Source: a virus. From it: a DNA stretch of 64,000 nt. Numbering within the stretch: position 1 is the first letter of the stretch; every line of letters starts with the position of its first letter. The stretch is from positions 121,928 to 185,927 of IMG/VR virus record IMGVR_UViG_3300030104_006883; one strand, 5' to 3'. Positions 50,098-64,000 of the stretch are shown in pieces. The notes beneath the pieces are model-generated. The model made no database searches. It saw only the letters and a list, made by a program, of their open reading frames with translations, and was not told where the DNA came from. Made by a program: the position numbers and the translations under genes.

Positions 50098-50793
50098 GTG
50101 CAAATTGATTTATACGACGATGGTATCGGCAAAGTTGAACTTGTCCAAAGCATGGGCACTGATCTTACAATAGTCAATAGTGCTCGCGTTTCGTTTGGCA
50201 AGGAAAAAGAAAAACTTGACGATAAAGACAAGAAGCTTATAAAGTATCTAGTGGAGCATCGCCATACGTCGACTTTCGAACACAACCTCGCCACCTTCAG
50301 ATTTAAGGTGCCGTTGTTCATACGATCGCAGCATCATAGACACAGAACCTGGTCATATAATGAGATAAGTAGAAGGTACACTAGTTTTGATCTGGAGTTT
50401 TATCAGCCGAGCACGTTTAGAGCCCAACATAGCTCTAATCGACAGGCAAGTACAAGTGAGTTGGTTTGTCCCTTGATCAATATCTCCGGTTCACAGAGCC
50501 CACAGCCTGCGGACAAGCTACTGAGAGAGCACCATGAAAGGTCATTAGATCTATACAATAAAATGTTAGAAGCTGGCATATGCAGAGAACAGGCCAGAGG
50601 GCTGTTGCCACAAAATTTATATACGGAATATTACGGAACCACTAATCTGTCTAATCTGTTAAAATTTATTGACTTGCGCTTACATGAGGGTGCACAATGG
50701 GAGATACAGAGGGTGGCGGAGGCTTGCTTGGAGATAGCGACAGAACTGTGGCCCGTCTCAGTACAATCGTACAGAGACAACAAAGGAATATGA
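50098..50793 (+). CDS. thyX: Flavin-dependent thymidylate synthase
   Basis: IVNSARVS, HTSTFEH, QHHRHRTWSYNEISRRY, EQARGLLP. Confidence 0.95.
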   Translation: MQIDLYDDGIGKVELVQSMGTDLTIVNSARVSFGKEKEKLDDKDKKLIKYLVEHRHTSTFEHNLATFRFKVPLFIRSQHHRHRTWSYNEISRRYTSFDLEFYQPSTFRAQHSSNRQASTSELVCPLINISGSQSPQPADKLLREHHERSLDLYNKMLEAGICREQARGLLPQNLYTEYYGTTNLSNLLKFIDLRLHEGAQWEIQRVAEACLEIATELWPVSVQSYRDNKGI

Positions 50794-50827
50794 GAATACT
50801 CGCATATCATTATATAAGGAGAATAAA

Positions 50828-51817
50828 ATGATCGCAGATGTAATTGTCGACCTCCAGTATGGAGACTGTGGTAAAGGTAAAATTACTCATCACTTGTGTA
50901 AAGACAACCATTATACACACGTCCTGCGATATAATGGAGGATGCAACGCGGGTCATACTATATATCACAAGGGTAAGCGATTTATCACTCACCACATACC
51001 GGCGGGAGTGTTCTTCGGTGTGAAGTCAATTATTGGCTCCGGGTGCGTGGTGAACGTGGAACAATTTTTTAATGAGTTGGAGGAGCTAAACAATGGAGGA
51101 ATCGACACGCAAGGCTTGGTATACATTGCCGCTAACGCTCATGTTATCACTAATGAGCATTTGGAAGAAGAGACGAGAGAGCAAAAAATTGGCACCACCA
51201 AGAGGGGTAACGGACCTGCGTACAGAGACAAATACGCACGGACTGGAGTTCAGGCTAAGGATGTTCCCGAGCTAGAGCCTTTCTTAATAGATCTTTACGA
51301 AGAGTTTCACGAAAACGACGCTTCTCCTATTATTTTATGTGAAGGCGCTCAGGGATTTGGCCTTGATATTGATCATGGAGACTACCCGTATGTGACTTCA
51401 AGCCACTGTACAACCGCAGGGGCGCTGTTAAACGCCATTCCACCGTCCTGGGTTAGAGACGTTTGGGGCGTTGCCAAAATATATGAAACCTATGTTGGCA
51501 GTAAGCAATTTGAACCAGACGAGCCTGTCTTCTCTAGGCTTCGAGAGATAGGGGAAGAGTATGGTGCGACAACGGGTCGACCACGACAATGTAATTGGGC
51601 CGACATGTCGTTGATTGAGAGGGCTAGCAAGATCAATGGTGTGACAAAGTTGGTTTTTAATAAAGTTGATATTCTTAGAGAACTTGGAGAGTGGAACCTA
51701 ATTATTAATGGAGAGGCTGTTAACTTTGAAGACGAGGAGAGCACAAGAAACTATATCTTGAAGCGTCTACAAAACAACATGGAGATTTATTTTTCTGACT
51801 CGCCGCACAGGATATAA
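50828..51817 (+). CDS. purA: Adenylosuccinate synthetase (short form)
   Basis: QYGDCGKGK (Asp retained), GGCNAGHT, EGAQG, YPYVTSS, GATTGRPR. Confidence 0.92.
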   Translation: MIADVIVDLQYGDCGKGKITHHLCKDNHYTHVLRYNGGCNAGHTIYHKGKRFITHHIPAGVFFGVKSIIGSGCVVNVEQFFNELEELNNGGIDTQGLVYIAANAHVITNEHLEEETREQKIGTTKRGNGPAYRDKYARTGVQAKDVPELEPFLIDLYEEFHENDASPIILCEGAQGFGLDIDHGDYPYVTSSHCTTAGALLNAIPPSWVRDVWGVAKIYETYVGSKQFEPDEPVFSRLREIGEEYGATTGRPRQCNWADMSLIERASKINGVTKLVFNKVDILRELGEWNLIINGEAVNFEDEESTRNYILKRLQNNMEIYFSDSPHRI

Positions 51818-52107: not shown

Positions 52108-52344
52108 TTGAAAGAAGAAATAAAAAAAGGTGACTTAGTTCTTTGGAGGAGTGACGATCAGTTCGACCTAGTTGCAGGTCCGCCTCGCGACAACGCAGAA
52201 CAACTGGGTATCGTAGTCGAGACTAGAATGCTAGAGAATGCCAAGGGAGAGCTTGCAATAAGAGGAGTCTTGGTGAGATGGCCGGAATATGACACTGACT
52301 TTTGGACTCCAGTTGAGATGTTACAGGTTATAAGTGAATCATGA
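52108..52344 (+). CDS. 'VGDLV' SH3/KOW-like family protein
   Basis: IKKGDLVLW..GIVV..VRW; upstream gene stops inside its GGT-GAC. Confidence 0.65.
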   Translation: MKEEIKKGDLVLWRSDDQFDLVAGPPRDNAEQLGIVVETRMLENAKGELAIRGVLVRWPEYDTDFWTPVEMLQVISES

Positions 52345-52399
52345 TAAAGTGGAACAAACGTTTTCGTGCTACTAATTAAGTTTCATGGAGGCGTAGCAG

Positions 52400-52576
52400 A
52401 TGCATTTCACAGCAATAGAAATAGAGAAATATGAGAGAGGAGACTTGTCTTTTGAAAAGACAGTGGACTTGTTCCAAAGGATAGTCGATTCTGGGATGTT
52501 GTGGAGATTTGACAACGGGATACACGTTGACATCAACAAGCTAATTGACAGAGGCTATGTTTTAGCTAGATATTGA
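52400..52576 (+). CDS. 58-aa hypothetical protein (not in ORF track)
   Basis: GGAGG SD; MHFTAIEIEKYERGDLSFEKTVDLFQRIVDSGMLW. Confidence 0.65.
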   Translation: MHFTAIEIEKYERGDLSFEKTVDLFQRIVDSGMLWRFDNGIHVDINKLIDRGYVLARY

Positions 52577-52605
52577 AAATTGTTTTTTGGTCTATTTATT
52601 TATAG

Positions 52606-53152
52606 ATGAACCTTTATTATATTTATCAAGACGAAAATACTGGTGAAGGCACCTATCATGCTGCTGTTGTCGCCGCTGAAACCAAAGAAGAGGCTCGCTC
52701 AATTCATCCGGCTGGGAACTGGGACAGGGTGGACATGTGGTGTTATTCGGAGGAAGAGGTAGGTGTAAGGCTAATAGGCAAGGCAGCAAAGCCGGTCGCA
52801 AGCGGTGTCGTTTTGGCAAGCAATTCTTAATTTGGAATAATGGTATATTTTTTACTATTTAAAATAAATTGGTTTCCTTGCGCTTTTGAAAATGCAAGTG
52901 GTACGATGGGAAGGCGGACCCCCATCATTTTTTTACAAACCCTATTGTGGGGCTATTATTCGACGTGTAGTCAAAGGGGAATACATGGTAAAGGTTTATG
53001 AACCTAACAAGTCTGAGAAGGCTATTGATGTTATATTAACTGAATTGTATCTTTTACGAAGTGCAATTGAGAATGAAAAAAAAGATAAGTTAGAGGCGCG
53101 TATAAAAAAAATTCGTGCAATGCTGATTAAAATAAAAGATGACCTTGACTAG
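52606..53152 (+). CDS. Two hypothetical genes (52606-52830, 52886-53152), each preceded by a CTATTTA motif
   Basis: ORF track plus motif. Confidence 0.5.
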
Positions 53153-53168
53153 TCAATAACAAGATTAA

Positions 53169-53720
53169 ATGTCCCTGCATGGTATTTACTACATGGGGAA
53201 GAAATATAAATGTTCTTATTGTTTAGAGAAGGGCCACAATGTAAGAGGATGTGCCTCGTACAAGAATGACATAATTATAGCGGCCAGCAGAACGTTGGAG
53301 TTGAGAAAAGAACTTGTGGTGGCATGCGAAAGACAAGGGTTTGGTGTCGGGTGCATAGTTTCAGTGAACATGCGCTTGTGGGACAACAATTTGCATGAAT
53401 ATATAAACGTTGATACCATCGGAACTGTTGAGGAGATATATTGGAAATATCTCTTCTGGAAAAACCTTTCCGGAGATCGAAGTATAAACGGTGCGGTAAA
53501 GATTTCTTTCACGCATCCGAGCGCTGACGCGAGAGTTTATGTGACAACGGCCCTGCCCCCCAGCATCCAGAAAGAGATGAGGATTGACAGCACATTTGCT
53601 AAAAGGTCCATATTGAAAATAGTAGGCAAGTCAGACCATTTGTCGCTACCGGAATCTTTTTTAGACTTTGAGGAGATCAAGAAAGAAGTAGAAAGAAGAC
53701 ACAGGTTCAACGTGGAATAA
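53169..53720 (+). CDS. CCHC zinc-knuckle protein with SH3-like C-terminal part
   Basis: CSYCLEKGHNVRGC = CX2CX4HX4C; FGVGCIVSV. Confidence 0.7.
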   Translation: MSLHGIYYMGKKYKCSYCLEKGHNVRGCASYKNDIIIAASRTLELRKELVVACERQGFGVGCIVSVNMRLWDNNLHEYINVDTIGTVEEIYWKYLFWKNLSGDRSINGAVKISFTHPSADARVYVTTALPPSIQKEMRIDSTFAKRSILKIVGKSDHLSLPESFLDFEEIKKEVERRHRFNVE

Positions 53721-54016
53721 TTTTCTTGATTTTTCCAAAAAAGGAATTATTATTGTTACAGGAGGAAACGTATGTTTGATTTTGTAGACGATCCGTTTTC
53801 GGATTCTGTTGATCACGGTTCATTTAAAAATTTATATTTGGAAGATTATGAGCACATGCTAGAGAAGGCTGAAGCGGCTAATGAAATCGCTGCGGAGTAT
53901 CGCATGGCAGGACACCATCTCGCTGCCGAGGAGCAAACAAAAAAGGCCGTTGCCTTTAGAAATTGTGCCGAAAGTATTTTGGCGGTTGCTGCCACCATAC
54001 CTATGGCTGACGCGTA

Positions 54017-54217
54017 ATGATAAAGAAGGGTTCTTTAGTTAGGGTATCCTATTATTATCACGAGCATGTTACTCTAGGAATCGTTGTAGGTGACACGACC
54101 GAGGACTATTCAACTAGTGAGCCTCGCTGCCTTGTCCACTGGTTCTACAATGGAGAAACTAAAGAAATGTTAGAGAAGTACGTCGCTGTTGTTTCGGAGC
54201 CACCAGATGATAATTAA
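54017..54217 (+). CDS. 'VGDLV' SH3/KOW-like family protein
   Basis: MIKKGSLVRV..GIVV..LVHW. Confidence 0.65.
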   Translation: MIKKGSLVRVSYYYHEHVTLGIVVGDTTEDYSTSEPRCLVHWFYNGETKEMLEKYVAVVSEPPDDN

Positions 54218-54418
54218 GCACTTTCATGAACACGAATTGCTGAGCGCCTACAAAGCAGGCTCTAGTTCCGATAAAAAATATTATCAAAAATTAAAAAAGA
54301 AAAGACGACAAGAAAAGCTTGATCTTGGACCCGCTGCGATTATAAACATAGCAGGCCAAAAAAAAGAGGAACTGTTTATCTACGACAGGTTTGGCAAGAA
54401 GAAAAAGTTTTAGGAGAC

Positions 54419-54937
54419 TTGATTATGAATATCTTTGCGATTGAGAAAGATAACAGCGGACAGATTGATTGGATAAAATCGGCAGAATCTCAGGACAACT
54501 ACAGAGTTGTTAAAATGATTTTGGAATCTTGTCAGATACTATCAACTGTTCTTAATGAGCAGGGAGTGCAAGCACCATATAAATCATTTAATCCTAAGCA
54601 TCCATCTTGTCTCTGGGCTGCGGAGTCTAGCGACAACTTTGAGAATCTAGTGATGCACTGTTACGCTTTGATTGGGGAATATTCGGAGCGCTTTGGTAAA
54701 GATCATAAGTGCATTAGCGTATTGGAGAAGATTGTTTTACTCTATGACCCGAGCAGGTTCCCGACTCAAGATGCGACACCGCTCAAGATGGCGATGCCGG
54801 ATGAATTTAAGAGCGATGATATTGTCGAATCGTATAGAAAATATTATGCGAGCAAGACGAGAATGAGGTACCCATCTGATAAAGTGCCCAAGTGGTTTAT
54901 TACTTATCGCGGCAATGAACCATTTGTTGTAGTTTAA
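54419..54937 (+). CDS. Pyrimidine-dimer DNA glycosylase (DenV/PDG-like)
   Basis: MNIF, VVKMILESCQIL, HPSCLWA, AMPDEFK..VESYRKYY. Confidence 0.75.
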   Translation: MIMNIFAIEKDNSGQIDWIKSAESQDNYRVVKMILESCQILSTVLNEQGVQAPYKSFNPKHPSCLWAAESSDNFENLVMHCYALIGEYSERFGKDHKCISVLEKIVLLYDPSRFPTQDATPLKMAMPDEFKSDDIVESYRKYYASKTRMRYPSDKVPKWFITYRGNEPFVVV

Positions 54938-54973
54938 GCTTTACTAAATTATAAAAGGTGTTATAATATAGGT

Positions 54974-55264
54974 ATGACTGGATCACTTATAAGCTACAGA
55001 TGCGGAGGAAGTTTCTCCATGGGGGTGGTGATTGACTCATTTATCTTGGACATACCTGGATATAAGGGGTTGATGGCTGACGGGGACACTATAATTTCTG
55101 TTGGTTGGCTTACCGACAAGAGCGAAAAGAATCGTCGCCCAAAGCCGCTTTACCTGATGCAGATGGGGGACAGAAATAAGCTTGAGGAAGCACGAAATAG
55201 GATGAACAGAAATCGTAAGTTTTGGTACAACCTAAAGTGGTTTAACATGGAAAATATTGTGTAA
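54974..55264 (+). CDS. SH3-like family protein, apparently leaderless
   Basis: MTGSLISY..GVVI..VGW; ATG 6 nt after TATAAT. Confidence 0.55.
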   Translation: MTGSLISYRCGGSFSMGVVIDSFILDIPGYKGLMADGDTIISVGWLTDKSEKNRRPKPLYLMQMGDRNKLEEARNRMNRNRKFWYNLKWFNMENIV

Positions 55265-55285
55265 AAGGAGTCGGCGCTATGCCTA

Positions 55286-55642
55286 GTGTATTACGAAGCT
55301 CGTGAAAGAGCATTGAGCAACGGAAGAGTTTATCATCTGGTCGCGATACTGAAGCGCGGAAGAAAAGTTGTTAAGATTGGTGAAAATACGTGCAAAACTC
55401 ATCCAAGGTTCAAAAGAACATATCCTGATGGAACCACCGGCAGTCACATGCACGCGGAAATGAATGTCCTCCGCTTTGCCAAACCAGGGGACACCATCGA
55501 AGTCATGAGATTTTTAAAGACCGGAGGGATGGCGATGGCCAAGCCCTGTGAGCACTGTATGAAGCACATTCGACGGGCCGGTATAAAAAAAGTTCGTTAT
55601 ACGAACGAAGAGGGCGATTGGGAAACTATGAGGATTGAATAG
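55286..55642 (+). CDS. Zinc-dependent cytidine/dCMP deaminase-fold protein
   Basis: HAE and KPCEHC motifs, GIKKVRY. Confidence 0.85.
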   Translation: MYYEARERALSNGRVYHLVAILKRGRKVVKIGENTCKTHPRFKRTYPDGTTGSHMHAEMNVLRFAKPGDTIEVMRFLKTGGMAMAKPCEHCMKHIRRAGIKKVRYTNEEGDWETMRIE

Positions 55643-55728
55643 TGCTTATTCATGATAGAAAAACTTATGAAGAGTTTAGAGATGTGATTATAAACTTATT
55701 GACTTTATTCCGGAGGAGGTTTTAGGCC

Positions 55729-55947
55729 GTGAAAACTAAAAGACCCGAAAAGGGAGATTTAATAATTACTCGCAAGGGGGAATTTGGTATTCTCGTAGAA
55801 AGGGACCAGCACCAAGGTTCTTACTTCTGGAGAGTTGCTTTTACTGGAAAACAGCCCTGGAATTATGGGCATGAGTATGGGTGGCTAGAGACAAACATCC
55901 TAAACCGTGCTTATGGCAAACTTTGGAGGGCAAATGCTGGAGTCTGA
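55729..55947 (+). CDS. 'VGDLV' family protein
   Basis: EKGDLII..GILV..VAF. Confidence 0.6.
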   Translation: MKTKRPEKGDLIITRKGEFGILVERDQHQGSYFWRVAFTGKQPWNYGHEYGWLETNILNRAYGKLWRANAGV

Positions 55948-56105
55948 GATGGCGCTCAAGGCACCTTATTTTGAGCTATGGATGCTGCTAGAGCTTTGTC
56001 ATGTTATGACATTTTCTCTTATATTCTCTATAGTTGCAAATTATTTTATTTCTTCTCTTGACTCAAGAAAAGTCCGTGATTATAATCGAGCAAAGGAGAA
56101 GAGCG

Positions 56106-56300
56106 GTGAAAAAAGGTGATTTGATTTTATTTTGCGATCCTACGGGATCTTCGCCACCGGAGCCTGGTATCGTGATAGATGTAGACACGGAACCCCTCGA
56201 AGGCGACCCTAACTGCCTCGGATTGGTTTATGTAAATTTTGAAGACGGTGACTTTTGGGTAGACATGGACGATTGTAAAATTTTGAACGAGGAGTGGTAA
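56106..56300 (+). CDS. 'VGDLV' family protein
   Basis: GTG start, MKKGDLILF..GIVI..VNF; TTGACT-N17-TATAAT at 56058-56086. Confidence 0.65.
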   Translation: MKKGDLILFCDPTGSSPPEPGIVIDVDTEPLEGDPNCLGLVYVNFEDGDFWVDMDDCKILNEEW

Positions 56301-56301
56301 A

Positions 56302-56502
56302 ATTAAGAAAGGAGACTTGGTAGTTTTGTCTGCCTACGCCAGAGGCCTAAAGTGGCTTAGCGGCTCCTACGCAGGAAAAATAGGAGTTGTTGCCGGTATT
56401 GGCGAGTGTTCTTTTAAAAATAACGCCATGGAATACTGGGTAATTTTTACTGATGGCGAGGAAGAAAGATTTCTAAGAAAAGAGCTAAAAATAGCAAAAT
56501 AA
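56302..56502 (+). CDS. 'VGDLV' family protein with non-canonical start
   Basis: IKKGDLVVL..GVV..VIF..ELKI; ATT at 56302 lies 7 nt after GGAG. Confidence 0.5.
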   Translation: MKKGDLVVLSAYARGLKWLSGSYAGKIGVVAGIGECSFKNNAMEYWVIFTDGEEERFLRKELKIAK

Positions 56503-56530
56503 TTTTATTTTTTGAAAAGGGGGTTATAAC

Positions 56531-56800
56531 ATGGGTGTGGTTAAAGAATATTATAATTTGAGAGTCGGGGACATGTTTGAGACAAACTCTGGATTTGGCT
56601 TGATAACCAAGGTAACTTCTAAAAAATATTATTACAAAGTTGTTTCGAGCGAGCAAGCAATCAAAGGAGATTCTTACCCTATCGATAAGGATCGCTTCTG
56701 GGATATTTTTGTGGATGAAGATAAAGAAAAGGTGACAATCCACTATTCTCCTGATATGAAGTACAGAAGAAAAAAACTAATTTATGAAGTGCAAAATTAA
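56531..56800 (+). CDS. 'VGDLV' family protein
   Basis: LRVGDMF..GLITKV. Confidence 0.55.
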   Translation: MGVVKEYYNLRVGDMFETNSGFGLITKVTSKKYYYKVVSSEQAIKGDSYPIDKDRFWDIFVDEDKEKVTIHYSPDMKYRRKKLIYEVQN

Positions 56801-57113
56801 AAAATGTAAAAATGAACGTGCCCCTGGGAGGGCTACCTGTTATACGTGCAAGAATTTAATTTATAGGTACGGGATAACCGGCCCGGAGAGATCCCAGATA
56901 TTGAAAGAGCAAAACAACTCTTGTCGTATTTGTAGTAGAAAAATAAAATTTACTGGTAAGAATGACGGCATAGCCTCCCTAGATCACTGCCACAAAACGG
57001 GAAAGGTTAGGGGAGTGCTCTGTGGAAAGTGTAATACTTGGGTTGGGTATTATGAAAACAATAAGATTGATTTAGAGATAGTTAAAAATTATATTGGAGG
57101 TGAAGATGAATAA
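56784..57113 (+). CDS. Endonuclease VII-type HNH nuclease
   Basis: CRIC..LDHCHKTGKVRGVLCGKCN. Confidence 0.88.
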   Translation: MKCKIKKCKNERAPGRATCYTCKNLIYRYGITGPERSQILKEQNNSCRICSRKIKFTGKNDGIASLDHCHKTGKVRGVLCGKCNTWVGYYENNKIDLEIVKNYIGGEDE

Positions 57114-57213
57114 GTTTACTAGCGCCGAGCGTGACGGGGAGTTTATTTTTAAAGTCTTGTCTTGCGGCGGCATTTTGTCTGTAGTTTGTTATCTATTTTT
57201 GATTTGATTATGC

Positions 57214-57289
57214 GCGCCCATAGCTCAACCGGAAGAGCAACAGCCTTCTAAGCTGTAGGTTGGAGGTTCGAGTCCTCCTGGGCGTACCA
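57214..57289 (+). tRNA. tRNA-Arg(TCT)
   Basis: Cloverleaf; ACAGC-cttctaa-GCTGT arm; GGTTCGAGTCC; encoded CCA. Confidence 0.95.
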
Positions 57290-57322
57290 TTTTCTTTACT
57301 TTTGAAGAGAGGGGATTATCAT

Positions 57323-57574
<252 letters not shown>

Positions 57575-57619
57575 TACCGATTCGTCTTTCTCCTACTATT
57601 TATAGGAGGGGGATATAAT

Positions 57620-58402
57620 GTGGCAGGCTCAAGTTTTGGCGACAACACGAGTATTTCGGGTAGTTTAATTGTATCGGGCACTATCGCTCTCGGAGACGGC
57701 GACGATAATGTTTCTTTAGACGGAACTACTCTTGCCATAGACTCTTCCAATAACCGCGTTGGGATAGGCACGAGCAGCCCGGTCTACAAATTGCATGTCA
57801 ATGCATCGGCGGCAGATACTACAAGTCAAATAACGTCCTATTTCCGATCGGCAGACACAGATTACTCTAGGATTGCGGTTGACTCGACAAGCAACGCGGA
57901 TACACAAATATCTTTTATGAACAATGGTTCTACAAAGTGGAGCATCGGCAACGAAGCTGCGGCTGATTCTTTTCACGTCACAACCGGCTTTGGACCTTTC
58001 GACACAGACAACCCGCTAGTGATATCCAGCGACGGAGATACAACTTTAGCTGGCAACACTTCATTAGACGGTGGTTACGTTCTTGGTAATGAATCATTAA
58101 CTGCTTCTGACACCGGAGGCAACGCAAGCGTAACAAAGACGCTCAGCCTTTTGACCAACATGGGGGGCAACCTAGCTTTAACTTTGGGAAACGCAGCCAA
58201 CACTGGACAAGTAAAAAAATTATTATGCACCGGATACAATGGATCGAATTCTTTAGTTGTTACGGTTAACAGTGCGTCTTGGACAGGTGGATCATCCGGT
58301 ACAATAACTTTTTCTACTGCTGCGAGCTTTGTTCATCTGGTTTGGGCAAATTCTGTGTGGTGGGTTCTCGGAGCCTCCGCGTCGGGTGTTTCTTTTGGAT
58401 AA
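57620..58402 (+). CDS. Tail-fibre-like/virion beta-repeat protein inside the tRNA array
   Basis: NRVGIGTSSPVYKLHV motif, WSIGN, Gly/Ser/Thr-rich; ACTATTTA and AGGAGG upstream. Confidence 0.7.
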   Translation: MAGSSFGDNTSISGSLIVSGTIALGDGDDNVSLDGTTLAIDSSNNRVGIGTSSPVYKLHVNASAADTTSQITSYFRSADTDYSRIAVDSTSNADTQISFMNNGSTKWSIGNEAAADSFHVTTGFGPFDTDNPLVISSDGDTTLAGNTSLDGGYVLGNESLTASDTGGNASVTKTLSLLTNMGGNLALTLGNAANTGQVKKLLCTGYNGSNSLVVTVNSASWTGGSSGTITFSTAASFVHLVWANSVWWVLGASASGVSFG

Positions 58403-58450
58403 ATAAAAGCTTTACTTTTTCAAATTAGTGTTTATAGTGTATTCGTAAAT

Positions 58451-58536
58451 GGCCTTGTGGCGGAATTGGTAGACGCAGCAGACTCAAAATCTGCCGTCCT
58501 TTGGGCGTGAGGGTTCGAGTCCCTCCGAGGCCACCA
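58451..58536 (+). tRNA. tRNA-Leu(CAA)
   Basis: GCAGA-ctcaaaa-TCTGC arm, long variable arm, CCA. Confidence 0.95.
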
Positions 58537-58541
58537 TATAC

Positions 58542-58618
58542 GGACCTTTAGCTCAGTTGGTTAGAGCCCCCCGCTCATAACGGGGTAGTCCTCGGTTCGA
58601 GTCCGAGAGGGTCCACCA
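58542..58618 (+). tRNA. tRNA with CAT anticodon, most likely Ile2 (lysidine)
   Basis: GGACCTTTAGCTCAGTTGGTTAGAGC 5' end like Firmicute tRNA-Ile2; CCCCG-ctcataa-CGGGG; CCA; not initiator (G1-C72 paired). Confidence 0.85.
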
Positions 58619-58661
58619 AAATATAACTTGATATTTTTCTTTAGGGGGTTAAAATATTAAC

Positions 58662-58910
58662 ATGGAAAACAAAAAGAAATATCAAGTTGGTGATTTGGTG
58701 ATTTGCAGGTTCCAACCGGGAGCCCAGAATTATGATTCTAGGCACGGGTTTATCCCCATGCATCATACTATTAAAGATGAAATTGGTATTGTTGTGGGCC
58801 ACAGAGAGAGCGGGCTTAAAGGTGGTTCCGCTGACTACCGTGTAAATTTCCCGCAGTTTAGCGGATATGTCCATATTCTCGCGGCGTCTGCGCTGGAGCC
58901 CATGGAATGA
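58662..58910 (+). CDS. 'VGDLV' family protein, apparently leaderless
   Basis: YQVGDLVIC..GIVV..VNF..ALEPM; ATG 6 nt after TAAAAT. Confidence 0.7.
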   Translation: MENKKKYQVGDLVICRFQPGAQNYDSRHGFIPMHHTIKDEIGIVVGHRESGLKGGSADYRVNFPQFSGYVHILAASALEPME

Positions 58911-59119
58911 AAGTCGGCGATTTGCTTGTTTATTATGATATCAATGGCAAAGAAATCTCTGGGATTGTAGTGAAAGGGTCACATTACAGCGAAACCACTG
59001 AGTCGCAAGCAGTAAGGGCGCTCTGGTCCGATGACGGATTGATAACTGATGAACCCATAGACATCATTCTTAGTGACGATCTAGAGTATAGTTATATTAA
59101 GCTTGTTTCGGAAGCTTAG
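58907..59119 (+). CDS. 'VGDLV' family protein
   Basis: MKVGDLLVY..GIVV..ALW..IKLV. Confidence 0.75.
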   Translation: MKVGDLLVYYDINGKEISGIVVKGSHYSETTESQAVRALWSDDGLITDEPIDIILSDDLEYSYIKLVSEA

Positions 59120-59183
59120 TGTAGTTAAAAATTTACTCCCTTAGACATGTTATTACTACTTATTCAAAAGCCAAGGAGGCAAA

Positions 59184-59420
59184 ATGACGCGGAAAGATTT
59201 CCAGCTAATCGCTGACGTAGTTGCTACGGTTGATGACATGAACGCTCGTAACGAGTTGGCACTTAACTTTGTAACTAAACTTTATGACACAAATGAAAAA
59301 TTTGATAGTGTTCGTTTTTTGAAAGCGTGCCAGGTTAATATCAAAAACAATCGTAAGAGAGTAGAAAAAAAGGATCGATTTGATGATTCTTATGCAAAAG
59401 AAAGTTTTATAGCGCCGTAA
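59184..59420 (+). CDS. Hypothetical protein
   Basis: MTRKDFQLIAD..NEKFDSVRFLKAC; AAGGAGG SD. Confidence 0.7.
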   Translation: MTRKDFQLIADVVATVDDMNARNELALNFVTKLYDTNEKFDSVRFLKACQVNIKNNRKRVEKKDRFDDSYAKESFIAP

Positions 59421-59446
59421 CGGTTCTTATAATATAGTCAAGACAA

Positions 59447-59522
59447 TGCACAGTAGCTCAGTTGGTAGAGCAGACGGCTGTTAACCGTCCGGTCACAGGT
59501 TCGAGCCCTGTCTGTGCAGCCA
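59447..59522 (+). tRNA. tRNA-Asn(GTT)
   Basis: TGCACAG/CTGTGCA acceptor; GACGG-ctgttaa-CCGTC; CCA. Confidence 0.95.
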
Positions 59523-59700
59523 AACAAAGAGAGGAAACCTTGAGAAGCACTAGCATGGCAAAGACTGTTTTAAATGCTCTGGAAGATGCTCAAAGAGATG
59601 AGTATCGGTTTGAAGATTTAGAAGACTTGTCTGTGTTCATAACCCAAAGGGTTGCGGACCATATCAATAGGGCGCTAAAAGAGATGCTGGACATTGACCG

Positions 59701-59883
59701 ATGAAAGTCGGTAGTTTGGTGAAAACTAGAGGAGTCTGGGGATCTCGCGAGCACGCGATTATAGTCGATATTCATAAACGAATAGGAGGACACCACTCCT
59801 ACGATATTGTTTTTATTAGAGATGGATTTAAAAAGTATAACCTCGAACGATCTGAATTTGAATTAGTTAGTGGAGTAGATTAA
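59701..59883 (+). CDS. 'VGDLV' family protein
   Basis: MKVGSLVKT..AIIV..IVF..FELV. Confidence 0.75.
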   Translation: MKVGSLVKTRGVWGSREHAIIVDIHKRIGGHHSYDIVFIRDGFKKYNLERSEFELVSGVD

Positions 59884-59884
59884 T

Positions 59885-60271
59885 ATGGGATACCGATCAA
59901 ATGTAGTTTTGGCGATGAGTGAACCTATCAAGCCTTATTTTTTAACCTTGATGGCGACGAACCCCAAAGCAAAGAAGTTTATTGAAGAAGCTGATGTGTT
60001 CGCTTCTTCAAAGATTGAAGAGGGCGATTTTGTAGTCGCCTGGAACGGTGTAAAGTGGTATCCATCTTATGATGAGGTGGAGGCTATTATTAATTTTGTC
60101 TTCGACCTGGAGAACCATGACCTTAGTGACTACGGCGCTAAGAATGGAGACATACAGTGGGAGGAGGAATTGTTTAAGTTCATTCGTATTGGTGAGGACC
60201 ATGGCGATGTGGATGTCATTGGTACCGGATTCTGGGATTTAATGCCAGTCACCAAAATTGGTTGGCCTTAA
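59885..60271 (+). CDS. Hypothetical phage protein
   Basis: MGYRSNV..KWYPSY..FIRIGED pattern. Confidence 0.6.
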   Translation: MGYRSNVVLAMSEPIKPYFLTLMATNPKAKKFIEEADVFASSKIEEGDFVVAWNGVKWYPSYDEVEAIINFVFDLENHDLSDYGAKNGDIQWEEELFKFIRIGEDHGDVDVIGTGFWDLMPVTKIGWP

Positions 60272-60308
60272 AATTTGACCTATTGCACTTTGTAGTTATA
60301 ATTGTGAC

Positions 60309-60524
60309 ATGATGAAAGTTGGCGATTTAGTAAAAATGAAGTATGCCATGTGGTGGCGTCTGCGCGGAGAGAGAGCCGCCAGCAGAAAATACACCGAAAA
60401 AGTTGGTGTGGTGACGTCGGCTGACCATAATGCAATTAAAGTGCTTTTGGTTGGCGAAGACCGCGCCAGGGTCGGTTTGAAAGAAGAGTGGGAGATTGTA
60501 AATGAAAGTCGGCGATCTTGTTAG
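60309..60524 (+). CDS. 'VGDLV' family protein, apparently leaderless
   Basis: MMKVGDLVKM; ends WEIVNESRRSC. Confidence 0.75.
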   Translation: MMKVGDLVKMKYAMWWRLRGERAASRKYTEKVGVVTSADHNAIKVLLVGEDRARVGLKEEWEIVNESRRSC

Positions 60525-60684
60525 GGTTAAGCGGGACTATCAAAACACAGAGGCCGCAGGAGTGCTGGCGCTAATTGTTAAAAGATCCGGCAACTCAGTC
60601 ATAGTGCAGGCACTAGGCAACCTAGATAAACCTCATTATGAGCATCGATGGTGGTTTAATCCTGAACATCTGGAGGTTATTTGA
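60502..60684 (+). CDS. 'VGDLV' family protein
   Basis: MKVGDLVRV..HLEVI. Confidence 0.75.
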   Translation: MKVGDLVRVKRDYQNTEAAGVLALIVKRSGNSVIVQALGNLDKPHYEHRWWFNPEHLEVI

Positions 60685-60839
60685 TGTGGGTTTTTTATTC
60701 AGAGTTATCCGAAGTCGCTTATCAGTCTCCGAGTGATGCGGCAATATTTCTATTTATGTATTGTGCGATGGCAGCGTGTGTTTTGCTCCCCCCTTACATG
60801 GAGACGGTTAGAAACGAAAGTCATCGACCCGACCGATGA
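60684..60839 (+). CDS. 51-aa single-TM peptide (not in ORF track)
   Basis: TGATG coupling, GGAGG SD; AAIFLFMYCAMAACVLLP hydrophobic stretch. Confidence 0.5.
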   Translation: MWVFYSELSEVAYQSPSDAAIFLFMYCAMAACVLLPPYMETVRNESHRPDR

Positions 60840-60908
60840 ATTGGATGATTATAAAAAGTTTTACTTTTGCTGTGTTGTTGTTACAATGCCAATGAAAGCA
60901 AACAGTAT

Positions 60909-60985
60909 GCGCCCGTAGCTCAGTAGGTTAGAGCGCCATTCTTATAAAGTGGTTGTCGTGGGTTCAAGTCCCATCGGGCGCACCA
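60909..60985 (+). tRNA. tRNA-Ile(TAT)
   Basis: GCGCCCG/CGGGCGC acceptor; CCATT-cttataa-AGTGG arm; CCA. Confidence 0.9.
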
Positions 60986-61007
60986 AATATTTTACTTAGG
61001 AGCCATT

Positions 61008-61190
61008 GTGAATTTTTATGCTTATTCTCCGGGGGACTTACTCTCCCGTGACCGTAACTTGGCACTTGTAGTGGACGGAGGAACCGTGAATACCTTTACA
61101 GTTCAATGGGTCACTGGCTCGAATACGGGCAAACGGATCACTTATCAATACGGTGAGCGGCCCGCATTTAAGATGCTGAACCCATCATGA
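61008..61190 (+). CDS. 'VGDLV' family protein
   Basis: YSPGDLLS..ALVV..VQW. Confidence 0.65.
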   Translation: MNFYAYSPGDLLSRDRNLALVVDGGTVNTFTVQWVTGSNTGKRITYQYGERPAFKMLNPS

Positions 61191-61363
61191 AGGTTGGCTC
61201 GCTCGTTTATAATATTTTCGATGAGAGAAAGATTGACCAACGAGAGATTGGTATTATAATGGATGTGAGAACAGTGGTAGGAACCGCAAAGGTTCTTTGG
61301 CCTGGACACTCTCCCTCATGGATTAGAAAAGATAACCTGGAGATGGTAGATGCAGCAGAATGA
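61187..61363 (+). CDS. 'VGDLV' family protein (not in ORF track)
   Basis: MKVGSLVYN..GIIM..VLW..WIRKDNLEMVDAAE, 58 aa, translated by hand. Confidence 0.75.
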   Translation: MKVGSLVYNIFDERKIDQREIGIIMDVRTVVGTAKVLWPGHSPSWIRKDNLEMVDAAE

Positions 61364-61865
61364 TATTTTAATGAAGAAGTGGTGTTTTGGAATCGGTCGA
61401 GTCCGAAAGACTGTAGAAACAAACAGCGAGGGAGAGGCAGAGATTGTGCGCTCTTTTCCGCGTTACCGCACCATTGTGATGAAGGTGGCGTCCGCTAAGA
61501 AGCTGCCTGATAATAAGTGGGAGGTGGAAGCAGATAAGTACACGTCTCTAACAAAGCCTCCTAAGCGAGTCAAGATTATTCTTGACCAAAAGCAACACAT
61601 GCAGGCCGGAAAGATTTTTAGTTCTTACGAGGTAGCAGGCGAAAAAAAACCCTTCTACCATGTGCAGACATCTCAAGTCGCCGGAGAGGGGATGCCTCCT
61701 GTTGGCAGTCTGGTCACGCTAAATAAGCGACACGCCATTGTTACGGAGACGGGACAAAATTGTCTCACCGTCTGGATGGATAATAAGTTTCATGAGGTGG
61801 TGGTGAAGCCCGGAAGCGTCCGATGGCATAGCGATAAGATTTTAGCTAACGCTGTGAAATCATAA
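61350..61865 (+). CDS. Hypothetical protein with C-terminal 'VGSLV' SH3-like module
   Basis: PPVGSLVTL..AIVT..VWM. Confidence 0.55.
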   Translation: MQQNDILMKKWCFGIGRVRKTVETNSEGEAEIVRSFPRYRTIVMKVASAKKLPDNKWEVEADKYTSLTKPPKRVKIILDQKQHMQAGKIFSSYEVAGEKKPFYHVQTSQVAGEGMPPVGSLVTLNKRHAIVTETGQNCLTVWMDNKFHEVVVKPGSVRWHSDKILANAVKS

Positions 61866-62042
61866 ATGAAGATTGGTGACTTGGTACAAGTTAGGCTTAG
61901 CTCTCGCAGCGCGAACAAGGGTGACATTGGTATTTTTCTTGCTTTTGACCATCCTTTTGGCGAATGGTGCTACGTGCAAAAATGCGACGGGACAAAACTG
62001 AGAGTCCCTTGGGCACATCTTGATGAGCTAAACGATTATTAA
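61866..62042 (+). CDS. 'VGDLV' family protein (not in ORF track)
   Basis: MKIGDLVQV..GIFL..WCYV..VPWAHLDEL, 58 aa. Confidence 0.75.
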   Translation: MKIGDLVQVRLSSRSANKGDIGIFLAFDHPFGEWCYVQKCDGTKLRVPWAHLDELNDY

Positions 62043-62101
62043 AAGTTTTACTTTAACGGTACCGCGACTACAATGTTGTTGTAATACCCAGGAGGGGAAT
62101 C

Positions 62102-62848
62102 ATGAGTGTTAGGTGTAGCTATTGCTATGAAGTAGGACATAACCGCAGAACGTGCCCTCATCTCAAGAAGGCTTTGAAGAAGGCTGCGGAAGATGGCAAT
62201 CTATACGCGAAGGCCGAACTAAATAAAAAGATTGTTCGGACTTGTGGTTATTGCGCTAGACAAGGACACGATAGGAGGACTTGTAAATATCTCAAGAGAG
62301 ATATAGAGCGCTTGGCGTCTTGTAATCTAGAGATTCGGAAGAGAATCCAAAAAAAGGCTCAAGACCTTAATTTTGGCGTGGGTACTCTTGTCTCTGCTCG
62401 CTTTAGTAGATGGAACGAGGAAGAGCGTGAGTACCAACCCAAGAGCGCGTTTGGAATCATTAAGAAGATTGATTGGGAGACAGTAGACATCCATTCAGAA
62501 TGGGACAGTTCTGGCTCCTCTGCGTGGCCGTCTCCTGTGACTGTTGAATTTTTTGACGTGCCACAAAATCCTGCAAGAAGGTTTGATTTCCCTTTTGAAG
62601 TCAGCTACTTGGGGCCAGAAGAAAGAAAATCATTTCCAGAATGGAGGATGAGGGATGAACTTCTAGTGCATAACGCTGTGGCCGCGCAAGATGAGGGCGA
62701 ATCCTCACTAAATCAACAGTCCTGTCAAGACCTTGCTAAGAAGCTTATTACATACCGAGAATGGAAAGAGAACTACTGTGATAGGACGATTCAACGCACC
62801 CAGCGCTATTTGGGTATCGAGGAAGTTTTGACTTCCCAAGAACAGTGA
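62102..62848 (+). CDS. Double CCHC zinc-knuckle protein with SH3-like domain
   Basis: CSYCYEVGHNRRTC and CGYCARQGHDRRTC; FGVGTLV. Confidence 0.75.
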   Translation: MSVRCSYCYEVGHNRRTCPHLKKALKKAAEDGNLYAKAELNKKIVRTCGYCARQGHDRRTCKYLKRDIERLASCNLEIRKRIQKKAQDLNFGVGTLVSARFSRWNEEEREYQPKSAFGIIKKIDWETVDIHSEWDSSGSSAWPSPVTVEFFDVPQNPARRFDFPFEVSYLGPEERKSFPEWRMRDELLVHNAVAAQDEGESSLNQQSCQDLAKKLITYREWKENYCDRTIQRTQRYLGIEEVLTSQEQ

Positions 62849-62875
62849 TTATAATCCTCACATGAGGAGGTGGAG

Positions 62876-63199
62876 ATGAAATGTAGCTATTGCCAAAGGC
62901 AAGCGAACCATAACAGGAGAACATGCCCGGTAAAGAAGCGGGATGCTAAAATGTTTGAAGTTCATAGATTCCCGCAGAAGTTTTCTGTGGGGTCGTTGGC
63001 AATCGGCTGTCCCGCACCCCCCCGTTGGGCGGGAGAACGCCCCAGAACCGATTGGACAACAGGGCTACTCTTTCATATTCTGTCAGGCCCTCGCTCAGAT
63101 TACCATTCATGGGGAGGGTTGTATGATGTCATATGTTTGAGCGGAAATCACTCGGGTCAAACAAAGCAGGTTTATGGTGACTTCCTCTCCCCAAAGTAA
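62876..63199 (+). CDS. Zinc-knuckle-like protein with SH3-like domain
   Basis: CSYCQRQANHNRRTC (CX2CX5HX4C); FSVGSLAI. Confidence 0.65.
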   Translation: MKCSYCQRQANHNRRTCPVKKRDAKMFEVHRFPQKFSVGSLAIGCPAPPRWAGERPRTDWTTGLLFHILSGPRSDYHSWGGLYDVICLSGNHSGQTKQVYGDFLSPK

Positions 63200-63236
63200 A
63201 ACTTTACTTTTAAGTTTTCGAGGTTATAAACCTAGC

Positions 63237-63410
63237 ATGATAAAAGTCGGTGATTTAGTTAGATGCAAGGTTGTGCGAAGTTCGGAAGACCTTGCGTATG
63301 TTTTAGATGTGCCAAAAGAAGATGGCTCTTGGGTCTATCTAGTGTGGTGTAAAACAGGCTCTAAGACCTCAACTCACACTTCTCTGGTGGAGATGGTAAA
63401 TGCAAGTTAA
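63237..63410 (+). CDS. 'VGDLV' family protein, apparently leaderless
   Basis: MIKVGDLVRC..LVW..LVEMVNAS. Confidence 0.75.
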   Translation: MIKVGDLVRCKVVRSSEDLAYVLDVPKEDGSWVYLVWCKTGSKTSTHTSLVEMVNAS

Positions 63411-63588
63411 AGTAGCTGATTTGGTGAAGCACTCAGAAATCCCCTCACTAGGTGTTGGCCTTGTGACGAAGAGTCTAGGCGTTCACTGCATGGTGCAGTG
63501 GACATACCCAGCCGGTGGCGACCGCAAGAATCCCGGCCCAACACTGGAAAGAAACAGTATGCTGGAGTTTGTCAATGAAAGTCGGTGA
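63400..63588 (+). CDS. 'VGDLV' family protein
   Basis: MQVKVADLVKH..GLV..VQW..LEFVNESR. Confidence 0.75.
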   Translation: MQVKVADLVKHSEIPSLGVGLVTKSLGVHCMVQWTYPAGGDRKNPGPTLERNSMLEFVNESR

Positions 63589-63748
63589 TCTGGTAAGGCA
63601 TACAAGAAACGGAGAACCATTTGGGGAAATCCTAGTGGTAACGGCGCAGAAACTCAGCGAGACAAAAAATGAGTTTGTCAAACTTTCTGGCGGACGGAAT
63701 TCATGGCTACCAGCGGTATGCATGATAGTTGTCAGTGCGGTAGAATAA
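63575..63748 (+). CDS. 'VGDLV' family protein
   Basis: MKVGDLVRH; true start 63575. Confidence 0.75.
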   Translation: MKVGDLVRHTRNGEPFGEILVVTAQKLSETKNEFVKLSGGRNSWLPAVCMIVVSAVE

Positions 63749-63785
63749 ATCTTTACTTTCGCTCTTGCGCGACTATAATGAGGGC

Positions 63786-63965
63786 ATGATGAAAGTCGGT
63801 GATTTGGTAAATTTTACAGAGACGAAGTATCTAGGTACTATTATCTGCATTGATGAAAATCGATGTGAGATTCTCGTTCACGGAGACGTTCCTTTTAAAA
63901 ACCCTACTTGGATGAGCATGAAGATGCTCAAAAGAAACGCGGAGGCTATCAATGAAAGTCGGTGA
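63786..63965 (+). CDS. 'VGDLV' family protein, apparently leaderless
   Basis: MMKVGDLVNF..GTII..AINESR. Confidence 0.75.
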   Translation: MMKVGDLVNFTETKYLGTIICIDENRCEILVHGDVPFKNPTWMSMKMLKRNAEAINESR

Positions 63966-64000
63966 TTTGGTAAGATATAAAAGTGAGACACTAGGTTCCA
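63952..64000 (+). CDS. 'VGDLV' family protein (partial, runs off window)
   Basis: ATG AAA GTC GGT GAT TTG GTA AGA TAT. Confidence 0.7.
   Translation, partial: MKVGDLVRYKSETLGS

Follow-up and report, generated by a model that had tools for sequence, protein, structure and literature searches.

What kind of gene system is represented by the series of very short open reading frames (ORFs), many of them opening with MKVGDLV or a variant of it, that extends from position 52,108 to position 64,000 of a 64,000-nucleotide (nt) stretch of viral DNA? The stretch (hereafter the window, to whose numbering positions refer unless genome positions are given) corresponds to positions 121,928 to 185,927 of the IMG/VR record IMGVR_UViG_3300030104_006883, that is, to the final 64 kb of one viral contig of 185,927 bp, which is linear according to IMG/VR and complete by the CheckV estimate. 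A first-pass annotation had proposed that about 20 of these ORFs share a small SH3/KOW-like scaffold that is being amplified and diversified as an early-expressed library of binding proteins. The analysis reported here points, with a probability of roughly 0.6, to an early, hyperplastic array of one barrel family, whose old cassettes would be reassorted at a short junction sequence shared by neighbouring genes and whose products would act as diverse binders or inhibitors.

The Gene Family and Its Members

A hidden Markov model (HMM) was seeded with nine obvious members and iterated over every stop-to-stop ORF of the genome (2,245 in total). At convergence, it recovered 23 small ORFs, each of them located in or near the array, and had no match elsewhere; the search of the same genome with an alignment of 22 members (A1) returned 25 matches. 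The full-length profile is specific, and the homology reaches beyond the first seven residues to a glycine followed by a hydrophobic triplet, to VxW and to an LE motif, so that the pattern originally described, i.e., MK(V/K)G(D/S)LV, G plus hydrophobic triplet, VxW, and LE(V/I)(V/I)SES(R), is recovered as such.

The membership of the single ORFs was scored using profiles that include metagenomic relatives (Z = 2,245); these profiles were partly built from the members of the window, though the first profile recovered these members without containing them, and independent relatives exist. Strong matches were obtained for 14 of the 20 ORFs initially listed, 13 of them with E values from 1e-17 to 5e-7 and the last one, ORF 63952, which has just 16 amino acids (aa) ahead of the contig end, with E 7e-6. 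Two ORFs (58662 and 63400) are borderline members (E about 1e-4), and one (55729) is marginal (E 0.004 and 0.21; hhalign E 0.0011 over 24 columns). The family profiles give no support to 54974, 56531, and 61008, nor to the outlier 45736 (E 1.6 to 110). Additional members are located outside the window, at genome positions 7,876 and 15,832 and, on the minus strand, 11,691; the whole genome harbors about 23-25 copies, the contig-start part included. The gene family is real, far beyond chance, and it is the list of about 20 members in the first-pass annotation that needs trimming. The strong and borderline members in the window are the following (E values from the HMM profiles; dN/dS, the ratio of nonsynonymous to synonymous substitution rates, and dS calculated against a close relative):

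52108..52344, + strand: family member, 78 aa, TTG start, KKGDLV variant (E 6e-13 / 6e-14; dN/dS 0.04)
54017..54217, + strand: family member, 66 aa, KKGSLV variant (E 5e-13 / 4e-17; dN/dS 0.17)
56106..56300, + strand: family member, 64 aa, GTG start (E 5e-7 / 3e-8)
56302..56502, + strand: family member, 66 aa (E 1e-7 / 8e-9; dN/dS 0.11)
58662..58910, + strand: borderline member, 82 aa, YQVGDLV, long insert (E 7e-5 / 5e-4; dN/dS 0.28)
58907..59119, + strand: family member, 70 aa, modelled with AlphaFold2 (mean predicted local distance difference test, pLDDT, 84; five strands; E 1e-8; dS 2.1, replaced allele)
59701..59883, + strand: family member, 60 aa (E 7e-10; dN/dS 0.11)
60309..60524, + strand: family member, 71 aa (E 8e-13)
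60502..60684, + strand: family member, 60 aa (E 6e-12)
61187..61363, + strand: family member, 58 aa (E 2e-11; dN/dS 0.38)
61866..62042, + strand: family member, 58 aa, MKIGDLV (E 4e-8; dN/dS 0.05)
63237..63410, + strand: family member, 57 aa (E 2e-12)
63400..63588, + strand: borderline member, 62 aa, KVADLV ... NESR (E 1e-4; dN/dS 0.57)
63575..63748, + strand: family member, 57 aa (E 1e-7 / 3e-9)
63786..63965, + strand: family member, 59 aa (E 6e-11)
63952..64000, + strand: start of a further member, cut at the contig end (HMM; syntenic relative); the array resumes at the contig start (genome 1-2,023)

The array had been expected to continue past the window edge, and a syntenic relative does show its continuation into the sequence that here forms the contig start. 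In this contig, the array therefore lies in two parts, one at the end (genome 174-186 kb) and the other at the start (1-2 kb); in the relative, it ends ahead of an AAA_5/MoxR gene. The last 488 bp of the contig (window 63513-64000) and its first 485 bp (genome 1-485) are 90% identical, and the close relative contains this sequence in single copy; thus, two or three copies are perhaps counted twice. The similarity of the contig ends may be due either to an assembly redundancy, in which two alleles of a circular or terminally redundant genome were joined, or to a recent or diverged tandem duplication of the block.

Selection and Age of the Copies

When compared with the close relative, the members show dN/dS values of 0.04-0.57, whereas the spurious frames overlapping them exceed 1.6. 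In 19 orthologous pairs, the pooled dN/dS was 0.09 for the core codons encoded by the junction (see below), 0.16 for the other core codons, and 0.19 for the variable positions. Judging from these ratios, the genes are real, each of them is kept by purifying selection, and the loops are constrained like the core. The chance that short frames with a common start motif are simply a non-coding artefact of ORF calling is negligible; the proteins are indeed very short and devoid of database annotation, but this idea is refuted by the specificity of the full-length profile, by dN/dS values far below 1 and unlike those of the spurious overlapping frames, by a confident structure model, and by the existence of thousands of relatives.

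The same data bear on the proposal that the scaffold was amplified in this genome and that its loops are actively diversified, like an antibody-type library, against defence proteins, RNA polymerase/NusG partners, or ribosomes. A core that is conserved in many copies while the loops are hypervariable, the location rich in early-type promoters, and the copy number ranging from 13 to 23 among relatives would fit such a library. However, the only recent duplicates are those of the redundant contig ends; all the other paralogues of this genome share at most 39% identity, suggesting that the copies are old rather than recently amplified. Moreover, the dN/dS of 0.19 in the loops, against 0.16 in the core, corresponds to purifying selection and not to diversification, and the genome contains no reverse transcriptase (RVT_1) for targeted mutagenesis, which argues against hypermutation. 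The members also lack similarity to PADLOC models. Amplification and diversification in place is thus unlikely. A diversity-generating retroelement target was considered and rejected as well, on the basis of the missing RVT_1 and of the dN/dS at the variable positions.

Predicted Fold and Conserved Positions

The protein encoded by 58907 was modelled with AlphaFold2 using A1 as the input alignment. Its five predicted strands form a closed antiparallel small barrel, i.e., the SH3-like superfold that is found in Tudor, chromo, Sm, and KOW domains. The best Foldseek matches in the PDB were Spt5/NusG KOW, Sm, Tudor, and KOW-type ribosomal proteins (E 0.06-0.4). An exhaustive search with VIA-align retrieved the Tudor domain of PcrA/UvrD, other Tudor domains, chromo domains, Ube2O SH3-C, Spt5 KOW, and CarD, with Z from 5.0 to 6.1, a root-mean-square deviation of 2.5-3.1 A, and 52-63 aligned residues; a structural Z below 8 represents moderate support, and values of 5-6 are common among small barrels. 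The neighbours in ESM Atlas and BFVD are unnamed viral clusters plus Phage_g100 and Hva1_TUDOR, and in ESM Atlas also SH3-C_UBE2O. A profile of 144 sequences (A3), when compared with the PDB, matched the NusG KOW domain (E 4.9e-4 for the whole sequence and 0.059 for the domain), followed by Spt5, eS4, and uL24/eL26.

None of the members reaches the threshold of any Pfam, PHROG, NCBIfam, or PADLOC model; the gathering score of Pfam KOW (PF00467) is not attained either, the best E value being 0.22, in 1 of 22 members. The strand pattern of KOW, G-x-x-V ... G-x-V in the first two strands of an SH3-like barrel, is present in the family; the proteins, however, are stand-alone ORFs of 57-78 aa in a phage array and not domains of NusG/Spt5 or of ribosomal proteins. 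On the strength of the model and of the profile comparison, they are assigned to a previously unnamed family of 55-80-residue proteins with a predicted five-stranded SH3/KOW/Tudor-like barrel, outside Pfam KOW. The small SH3/KOW/Tudor-like scaffold in many highly diverged copies, as suggested by the first-pass annotation, is thus upheld by structure prediction.

The elements conserved in A3 are MKVGDLV, a glycine with three hydrophobic residues, VxW, a weaker G..W, and LEVISES(R), and they correspond to strands 1, 2, 3, and 5 of the barrel. The remaining occupied columns are near maximal entropy (3.5-4.1 bits), and all the surface positions, as well as the net charge, vary from copy to copy; in the family, the isoelectric point (pI) ranges from 4.2 to 9.8 and the proteins are 53 to 72 aa long (5th to 95th percentiles). 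The alignment contains no conserved surface column, so that neither a conserved aromatic cage nor any other conserved ligand site is present in it.

This distribution is relevant to the possibility that all the members do one KOW-type job, docking like the KOW domains of NusG/Spt5 or uL24, or the Tudor-like domains of UvrD/CarD, onto the host transcription/translation machinery or onto RNA, the copies being isoforms that tune the same target. Such a shared task might explain why the broad profile finds NusG KOW first, then Spt5, eS4, and uL24/eL26, and why the RNA-polymerase-binding Tudor-like domains of PcrA/UvrD and CarD match the fold at Z 5.5-6.1. It is quite improbable, though, given that conservation is confined to the buried core, with surface columns near maximal entropy and widely different pI values, that Pfam KOW is not reached, and that a Z of 5-6 is common for small barrels.

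The family profile also retrieves RING proteins of eukaryotes (P0001), in which MIB/HERC2-type repeats occur six times, and long proteins of bacteria or phages (P0084 and P0105) containing a similar barrel in 5-8 tandem copies, so that the scaffold is found as covalent repeats too.

The Dual-Coding Junction and the Putative Promoters

Many neighbouring genes of the array are joined by a sequence of about 35 nt, CTGGAG-N8-(A/G)TGAAAGTCGGTGATTTGGT, which is read in two overlapping coding frames; the consensus obtained from 17 gene starts (alignment A4; repeat families D1 and D2) is CTGGAG-N8-(A/G)TGAAAGTCGGTGATTTGGTAA. The first frame encodes L-E-(V/I)-(V/I)-(N/S)-E-S-R-stop, i.e., the C-terminus of the upstream protein, and the frame one base on encodes M-K-V-G-D-L-V. 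The GGAG of the junction provides a Shine-Dalgarno sequence 8-9 nt ahead of the start codon, the TGA stop of the upstream gene is formed by the Gly and Asp codons of the next one, and an N-to-S change at the upstream C-terminus converts the ATG of the next gene to GTG. The 14-nt core of the junction is present in 11 copies in the genome, all on the + strand and all in the array; with a looser motif, 15 sites are found on the + strand, all within the array, and none on the minus strand. A second repeat (D3), 63 nt long, heads three members and is composed of a stop codon, TT(T/G)AC(T/C), a 16-nt spacer, TATAA(T/A), and an ATG located 7 nt past the -10. The following elements are referred to in the text:

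56058..56086, + strand: sigma-70-like promoter TTGACT-17-TATAAT upstream of 56106 (11/12 consensus matches; then AAGGAG Shine-Dalgarno and GTG start)
60269..60331, + strand: promoter-plus-start cassette; stop, TTGACC-16-TATAAT, ATG 7 nt past the -10 (repeat family D3, three copies)
60491..60533, + strand: dual-coding junction linking the 60309 and 60502 genes (D1/D2; A4)
63197..63259, + strand: promoter-plus-start cassette, copy 2 (D3)
63564..63606, + strand: dual-coding junction, crossover site of a one-unit difference against the relative (D1 reference copy; base-by-base flank switch)
63746..63808, + strand: promoter-plus-start cassette, copy 3, TTTACT-16-TATAAT (D3)
63941..63983, + strand: dual-coding junction (D1; A4)

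In the three D3 cassettes there is no Shine-Dalgarno site, and the mRNAs of the genes that they head may be leaderless or near-leaderless. The start of 56302 is also unusual: in the region 56290-56320, no in-frame ATG, GTG, or TTG precedes the motif, an ATT codon lies 6 nt after GAGGAG, and this layout is conserved in the relative, making ATT a possible start codon.

The region contains 54 promoter-like sites, as consensus matches, versus 26.8 +/- 5.7 expected. Using a strict sigma-70 pattern, 24 sites are found on the + strand of the whole genome, 23 of which fall at 176.8-185.7 kb and 0.2-8.9 kb, i.e., in about 18 kb corresponding to window 54.9-63.8 kb plus the contig start. The array is thus likely to be expressed early, being placed in a hyperplastic region dense in putative sigma-70 promoters, and its location agrees with the early expression initially assumed. 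The terminator-like sites of the region are as many as expected (12 versus 11.8 +/- 3.2), and the late-promoter motif TATAAATA, with 8 sites on the + strand and 14 on the minus strand, has no pattern and is uninformative. On the minus strand, the strict sigma-70 pattern occurs once in the whole genome.

Turnover of the Array among Related Phages

Four stretches from other marine samples (L002-L005), 91-94% identical at the nucleotide level, are syntenic with this genome: thyX/purA are followed by the array, which is unbroken in them, and then by the AAA_5 (MoxR-like) and DUF2201 genes. By one broad profile, the array region of 20-25 kb contains 23 members in this genome, 22 in L002, and 15, 14, 13, 18, and 15 in five complete relatives of about 185 kb. 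Although four of these five encode an AAA_5 neighbour with about 65% identity to the one in this genome, their family members reach at most 48% identity to those found here.

Three unit-level differences separate this genome from L002, to which it is 92% identical. The relative has an extra unit between the orthologues of 63400 and 63575; this genome has an extra unit at genome 600-751; and a unit at genome 1,337-1,501 is swapped, being 36% identical, with flanks that are 97% and 81% identical. The base-by-base comparison with L002 revealed that the flanks change partner inside the junction. The dS of adjacent genes spans 0.05 to 2.1; in particular, it rises from about 0.1 to about 2 on reaching 58907 and 59184 (window 58907-59420), whose neighbours have values of 0.15-0.4, suggesting that a short tract was replaced by a diverged allele. 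Hence, the arrangement is not an invariant, single-copy one, and both the copy number and the unit content change among relatives, as had been anticipated.

The mobility of the cassettes is also apparent on a larger scale. In a pooled set of 1,017 cassettes (897 from 119 IMG/VR stretches and 120 from this phage group), when cassettes at least 75% identical were compared between different stretches, the neighbour across the junction was unrelated in 74 of 215 comparisons, and some units of this genome have kin in other contigs, up to 75% identity, closer than any paralogue at home. The reads over 58,000-64,000 amount to fragmentary metagenome contigs only, and the joints between junction copies in them were left unused as evidence; their sides are 20-35 nt long, and they probably derive from other phages sharing the junction.

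It might be argued that these are selfish or nearly neutral mini-genes, spread as cassettes by the junction and kept expressed by the coupling, with little or no benefit to the phage; the independence of the cassettes from their neighbours and the differences in units between close genomes, which have no obvious consequence, can be read in this way. This seems very doubtful in view of the purifying selection acting on the loops as well as on the core, of the maintenance of arrays in every complete relative examined, and of how widespread the family is.

Distribution in Metagenomes and Databases

Among 1.84 billion representatives, 1,637 clusters (50% identity) match the family at E 1e-3 or better. 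The 156 small top hits begin with MKVGDLV in 107 cases and end with ESR in 86. An 18-nt pattern of the junction is present in at least 119 IMG/VR stretches, from contigs of 5-293 kb, and 117 of these stretches contain family members, 897 in total and up to 29 per 15 kb; in the 15 largest arrays, the members are co-oriented. In GenBank phages, neither a typical member nor the junction was matched, except by chance over 17-21 nt. In cellular genomes, 116 single junction matches were found, versus about 69 expected by chance, none of them in arrays; being single and near the chance level, they give no clue to the host. The literature search yielded no paper describing the family or containing MKVGDLV.

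Proposed Mechanism and Its Weak Points

The whole of these observations can be arranged in the following scheme. The junction would act at the same time as a translational coupler and as a portable homology patch for recombination, by means of which marine phages would reassort a pool of old, diverged cassettes instead of diversifying them within one genome. The host RNA polymerase would transcribe the array early from the sigma-70-type promoters, and each of the small proteins would bind or inhibit its own macromolecule, of the host or of a rival phage, in takeover or counter-defence, which is the weakest point of the scheme. Diverse binders or inhibitors are favoured because the surfaces and charges are hypervariable, each gene is under purifying selection, and the location is of the early type; a single KOW-like target or selfish cassettes are less likely.

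Some points, however, weigh against this interpretation. With a Z of about 6 and Foldseek E values of 0.06 or worse, the fold matches are middling, so that little can be said about function from the fold, and the members remain below every threshold of Pfam, PHROG, NCBIfam, and PADLOC. The promoters are consensus matches only, and recombination is deduced from comparisons. Lastly, the members at 52-62 kb, which are split by other genes and tRNAs, have the same order as in the close relative; the turnover at junctions is therefore evident only in the chained part (63.4 kb to the contig start) and in other phages.

The reassortment of cassettes might be extended further. It is conceivable, albeit tentatively, that distinct KOW/SH3-like binder genes, numbering well above a thousand, form a pan-viral pool common to marine phages, all of them carrying the dual-coding "plug" of about 35 nt, so that any cassette could enter any array and be translated immediately by coupling. 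This would provide a rapidly re-assortable repertoire for early takeover or counter-defence, each protein having its own target.

The Phage and the Genes Adjacent to the Array

The long ORFs of the contig are all on the + strand and include genes for a tail sheath, a DnaE-type polymerase, DnaB, RecA, ribonucleotide reductase, and GroEL; the major capsid protein is of the Gp23 type. The closest match of the polymerase is about 31% identical, that of the sheath 33-41% over part of its length, and by these two comparisons, no cultured phage is close to this one. The sequencing runs with this DNA come from marine, seawater, and estuary metagenomes, and no RNA run is listed among them. Among GenBank phages, the region has no near relatives at the DNA level except for the tRNA genes. 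The phage, a marine myovirus, is uncultured and has a capsid of the T4 (Gp23) type.

Encoded beside the array or inside it are ThyX, adenylosuccinate synthetase (PurA), a dCMP-deaminase-like protein, and an endonuclease VII homologue (window 50098-51817, 55286-55642, and 56784-57113); tRNA genes are scattered within the array as well:

57214..60985, + strand: six tRNA genes (Arg, Pro, Leu, Met, Asn, Ile) within the array (ARAGORN)

Between tRNA genes of this early-type region, at 57620-58402, a protein of 260 aa is encoded that is rich in Ser, Gly, and Thr, has a fibre-like pattern of repeats at its N-terminus, and is very conserved (98.8% identity to the relative).

In the first-pass annotation, four larger proteins (53169, 61350, 62102, and 62876) were described as carrying the same module fused at the C-terminus. 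They are not members by sequence (HMM E 1 to 260, hhalign probabilities 0.2-15%). The profile-profile comparison of 62102 with the family is weak (E 0.0026 over 41 columns), as is that of the 61350 family (91 relatives) with A3 (E 0.0017, 15% probability). In the low-confidence model of 62102 (pLDDT 54), residues 80-195 retrieve the same Tudor/KOW/SH3 set at Z 3.4-4.9, and 53169, a paralogue of 62102, is homologous to it over this part (BLASTP 6e-15). The presence of barrels of the same general kind within these proteins is plausible.

Retroviral-type CCHC zinc knuckles (CX2CX4HX4C) are present in three of the neighbouring proteins, two in 62102 (62102-62848), one in 53169 (53169-53720), and one in 62870 (62870-63199); just five relatives of these zinc-knuckle proteins are present in the databases, and none of the Pfam families exceeds its threshold. 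The 171-aa protein encoded at 61350-61865 belongs to an unnamed marine-phage family, whose 91 relatives are 40-97% identical and have no Pfam assignment; its conservation contrasts with the fast turnover of the mini-genes around it.

Comparison with Known Systems and Implications

The nearest published analogue of the array is the shuffling of promoter-early stem-loop (PeSL) cassettes in T4-type phages. PeSLs are short repeats between small non-essential early genes in hyperplastic regions of these phages (Arbiol et al. 2010, PMC2839356); their recombination inserts, deletes, or replaces whole genes, with sigma-70-type promoters directly upstream of ORFans, the repeat includes a stem-loop terminator/attenuator, and encapsidated mini-circles are formed (PMC2839356). 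Similarly, the three cassettes at 60269, 63197, and 63746 consist of a stop, an AT-rich stretch, a -35, a -10, and a start; a repeated sigma-70-type promoter, as far as consensus matches tell, stands right upstream of small genes; and whole genes are gained, lost, or swapped with breakpoints in a repeat (the three events against L002), even though this repeat is a coding junction and not a PeSL. Unlike PeSL, the main repeat of the array is part of two coding frames that overlap, for which it provides the Shine-Dalgarno, the start, and the stop, and it is neither intergenic nor regulatory; a stem-loop terminator component is missing, the terminator-like sites being at expectation and the D3 copies having no consistent stem; and the cassettes all encode one protein family, whereas those of PeSL encode unrelated ORFans.

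As regards the proteins, they resemble the KOW domains of NusG, Spt5, uL24, eL26, and eS4 (PF00467) in the predicted five-stranded SH3-like barrel and in the pattern (K/F)VGD-V-hydrophobic ... G-x-(I/V)-V, which aligns with NusG KOW; they differ from them in being stand-alone proteins of 55-80 aa with a hypervariable surface, encoded by phages in multi-copy arrays, and in not reaching the Pfam threshold. The similarity to the Tudor/chromo/SH3-C barrels (the C-terminal Tudor of PcrA/UvrD, Ube2O SH3-C, and the phage Hva1_TUDOR) amounts to Z 5.5-6.1 over 52-59 aligned residues, without membership at the sequence level and without a conserved aromatic cage or ligand site. Integron cassettes and diversity-generating retroelements are comparable by functional analogy only, with exchangeable units sharing a common recombination sequence and with variable surfaces on a fixed scaffold; here, however, both an integrase-type site and a reverse transcriptase are missing, the loops are not hypermutated, and ordinary homology over about 35 nt seems to be the basis of the exchange.

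If the proposed scheme is true, a large share of the "dark" small ORFs of abundant ocean phages would be one structured family, whose mode of change is legible from DNA, a universal junction being both the translation coupler and the crossover site. This would extend the PeSL idea from regulatory repeats to coding overlaps and would offer a concrete, testable model for the natural reshuffling of phage accessory repertoires, together with a natural library of stable barrels of 55-80 residues with diverse surfaces. Should the pan-viral pool of cassettes also be true, it would represent the phage counterpart of integron cassettes.

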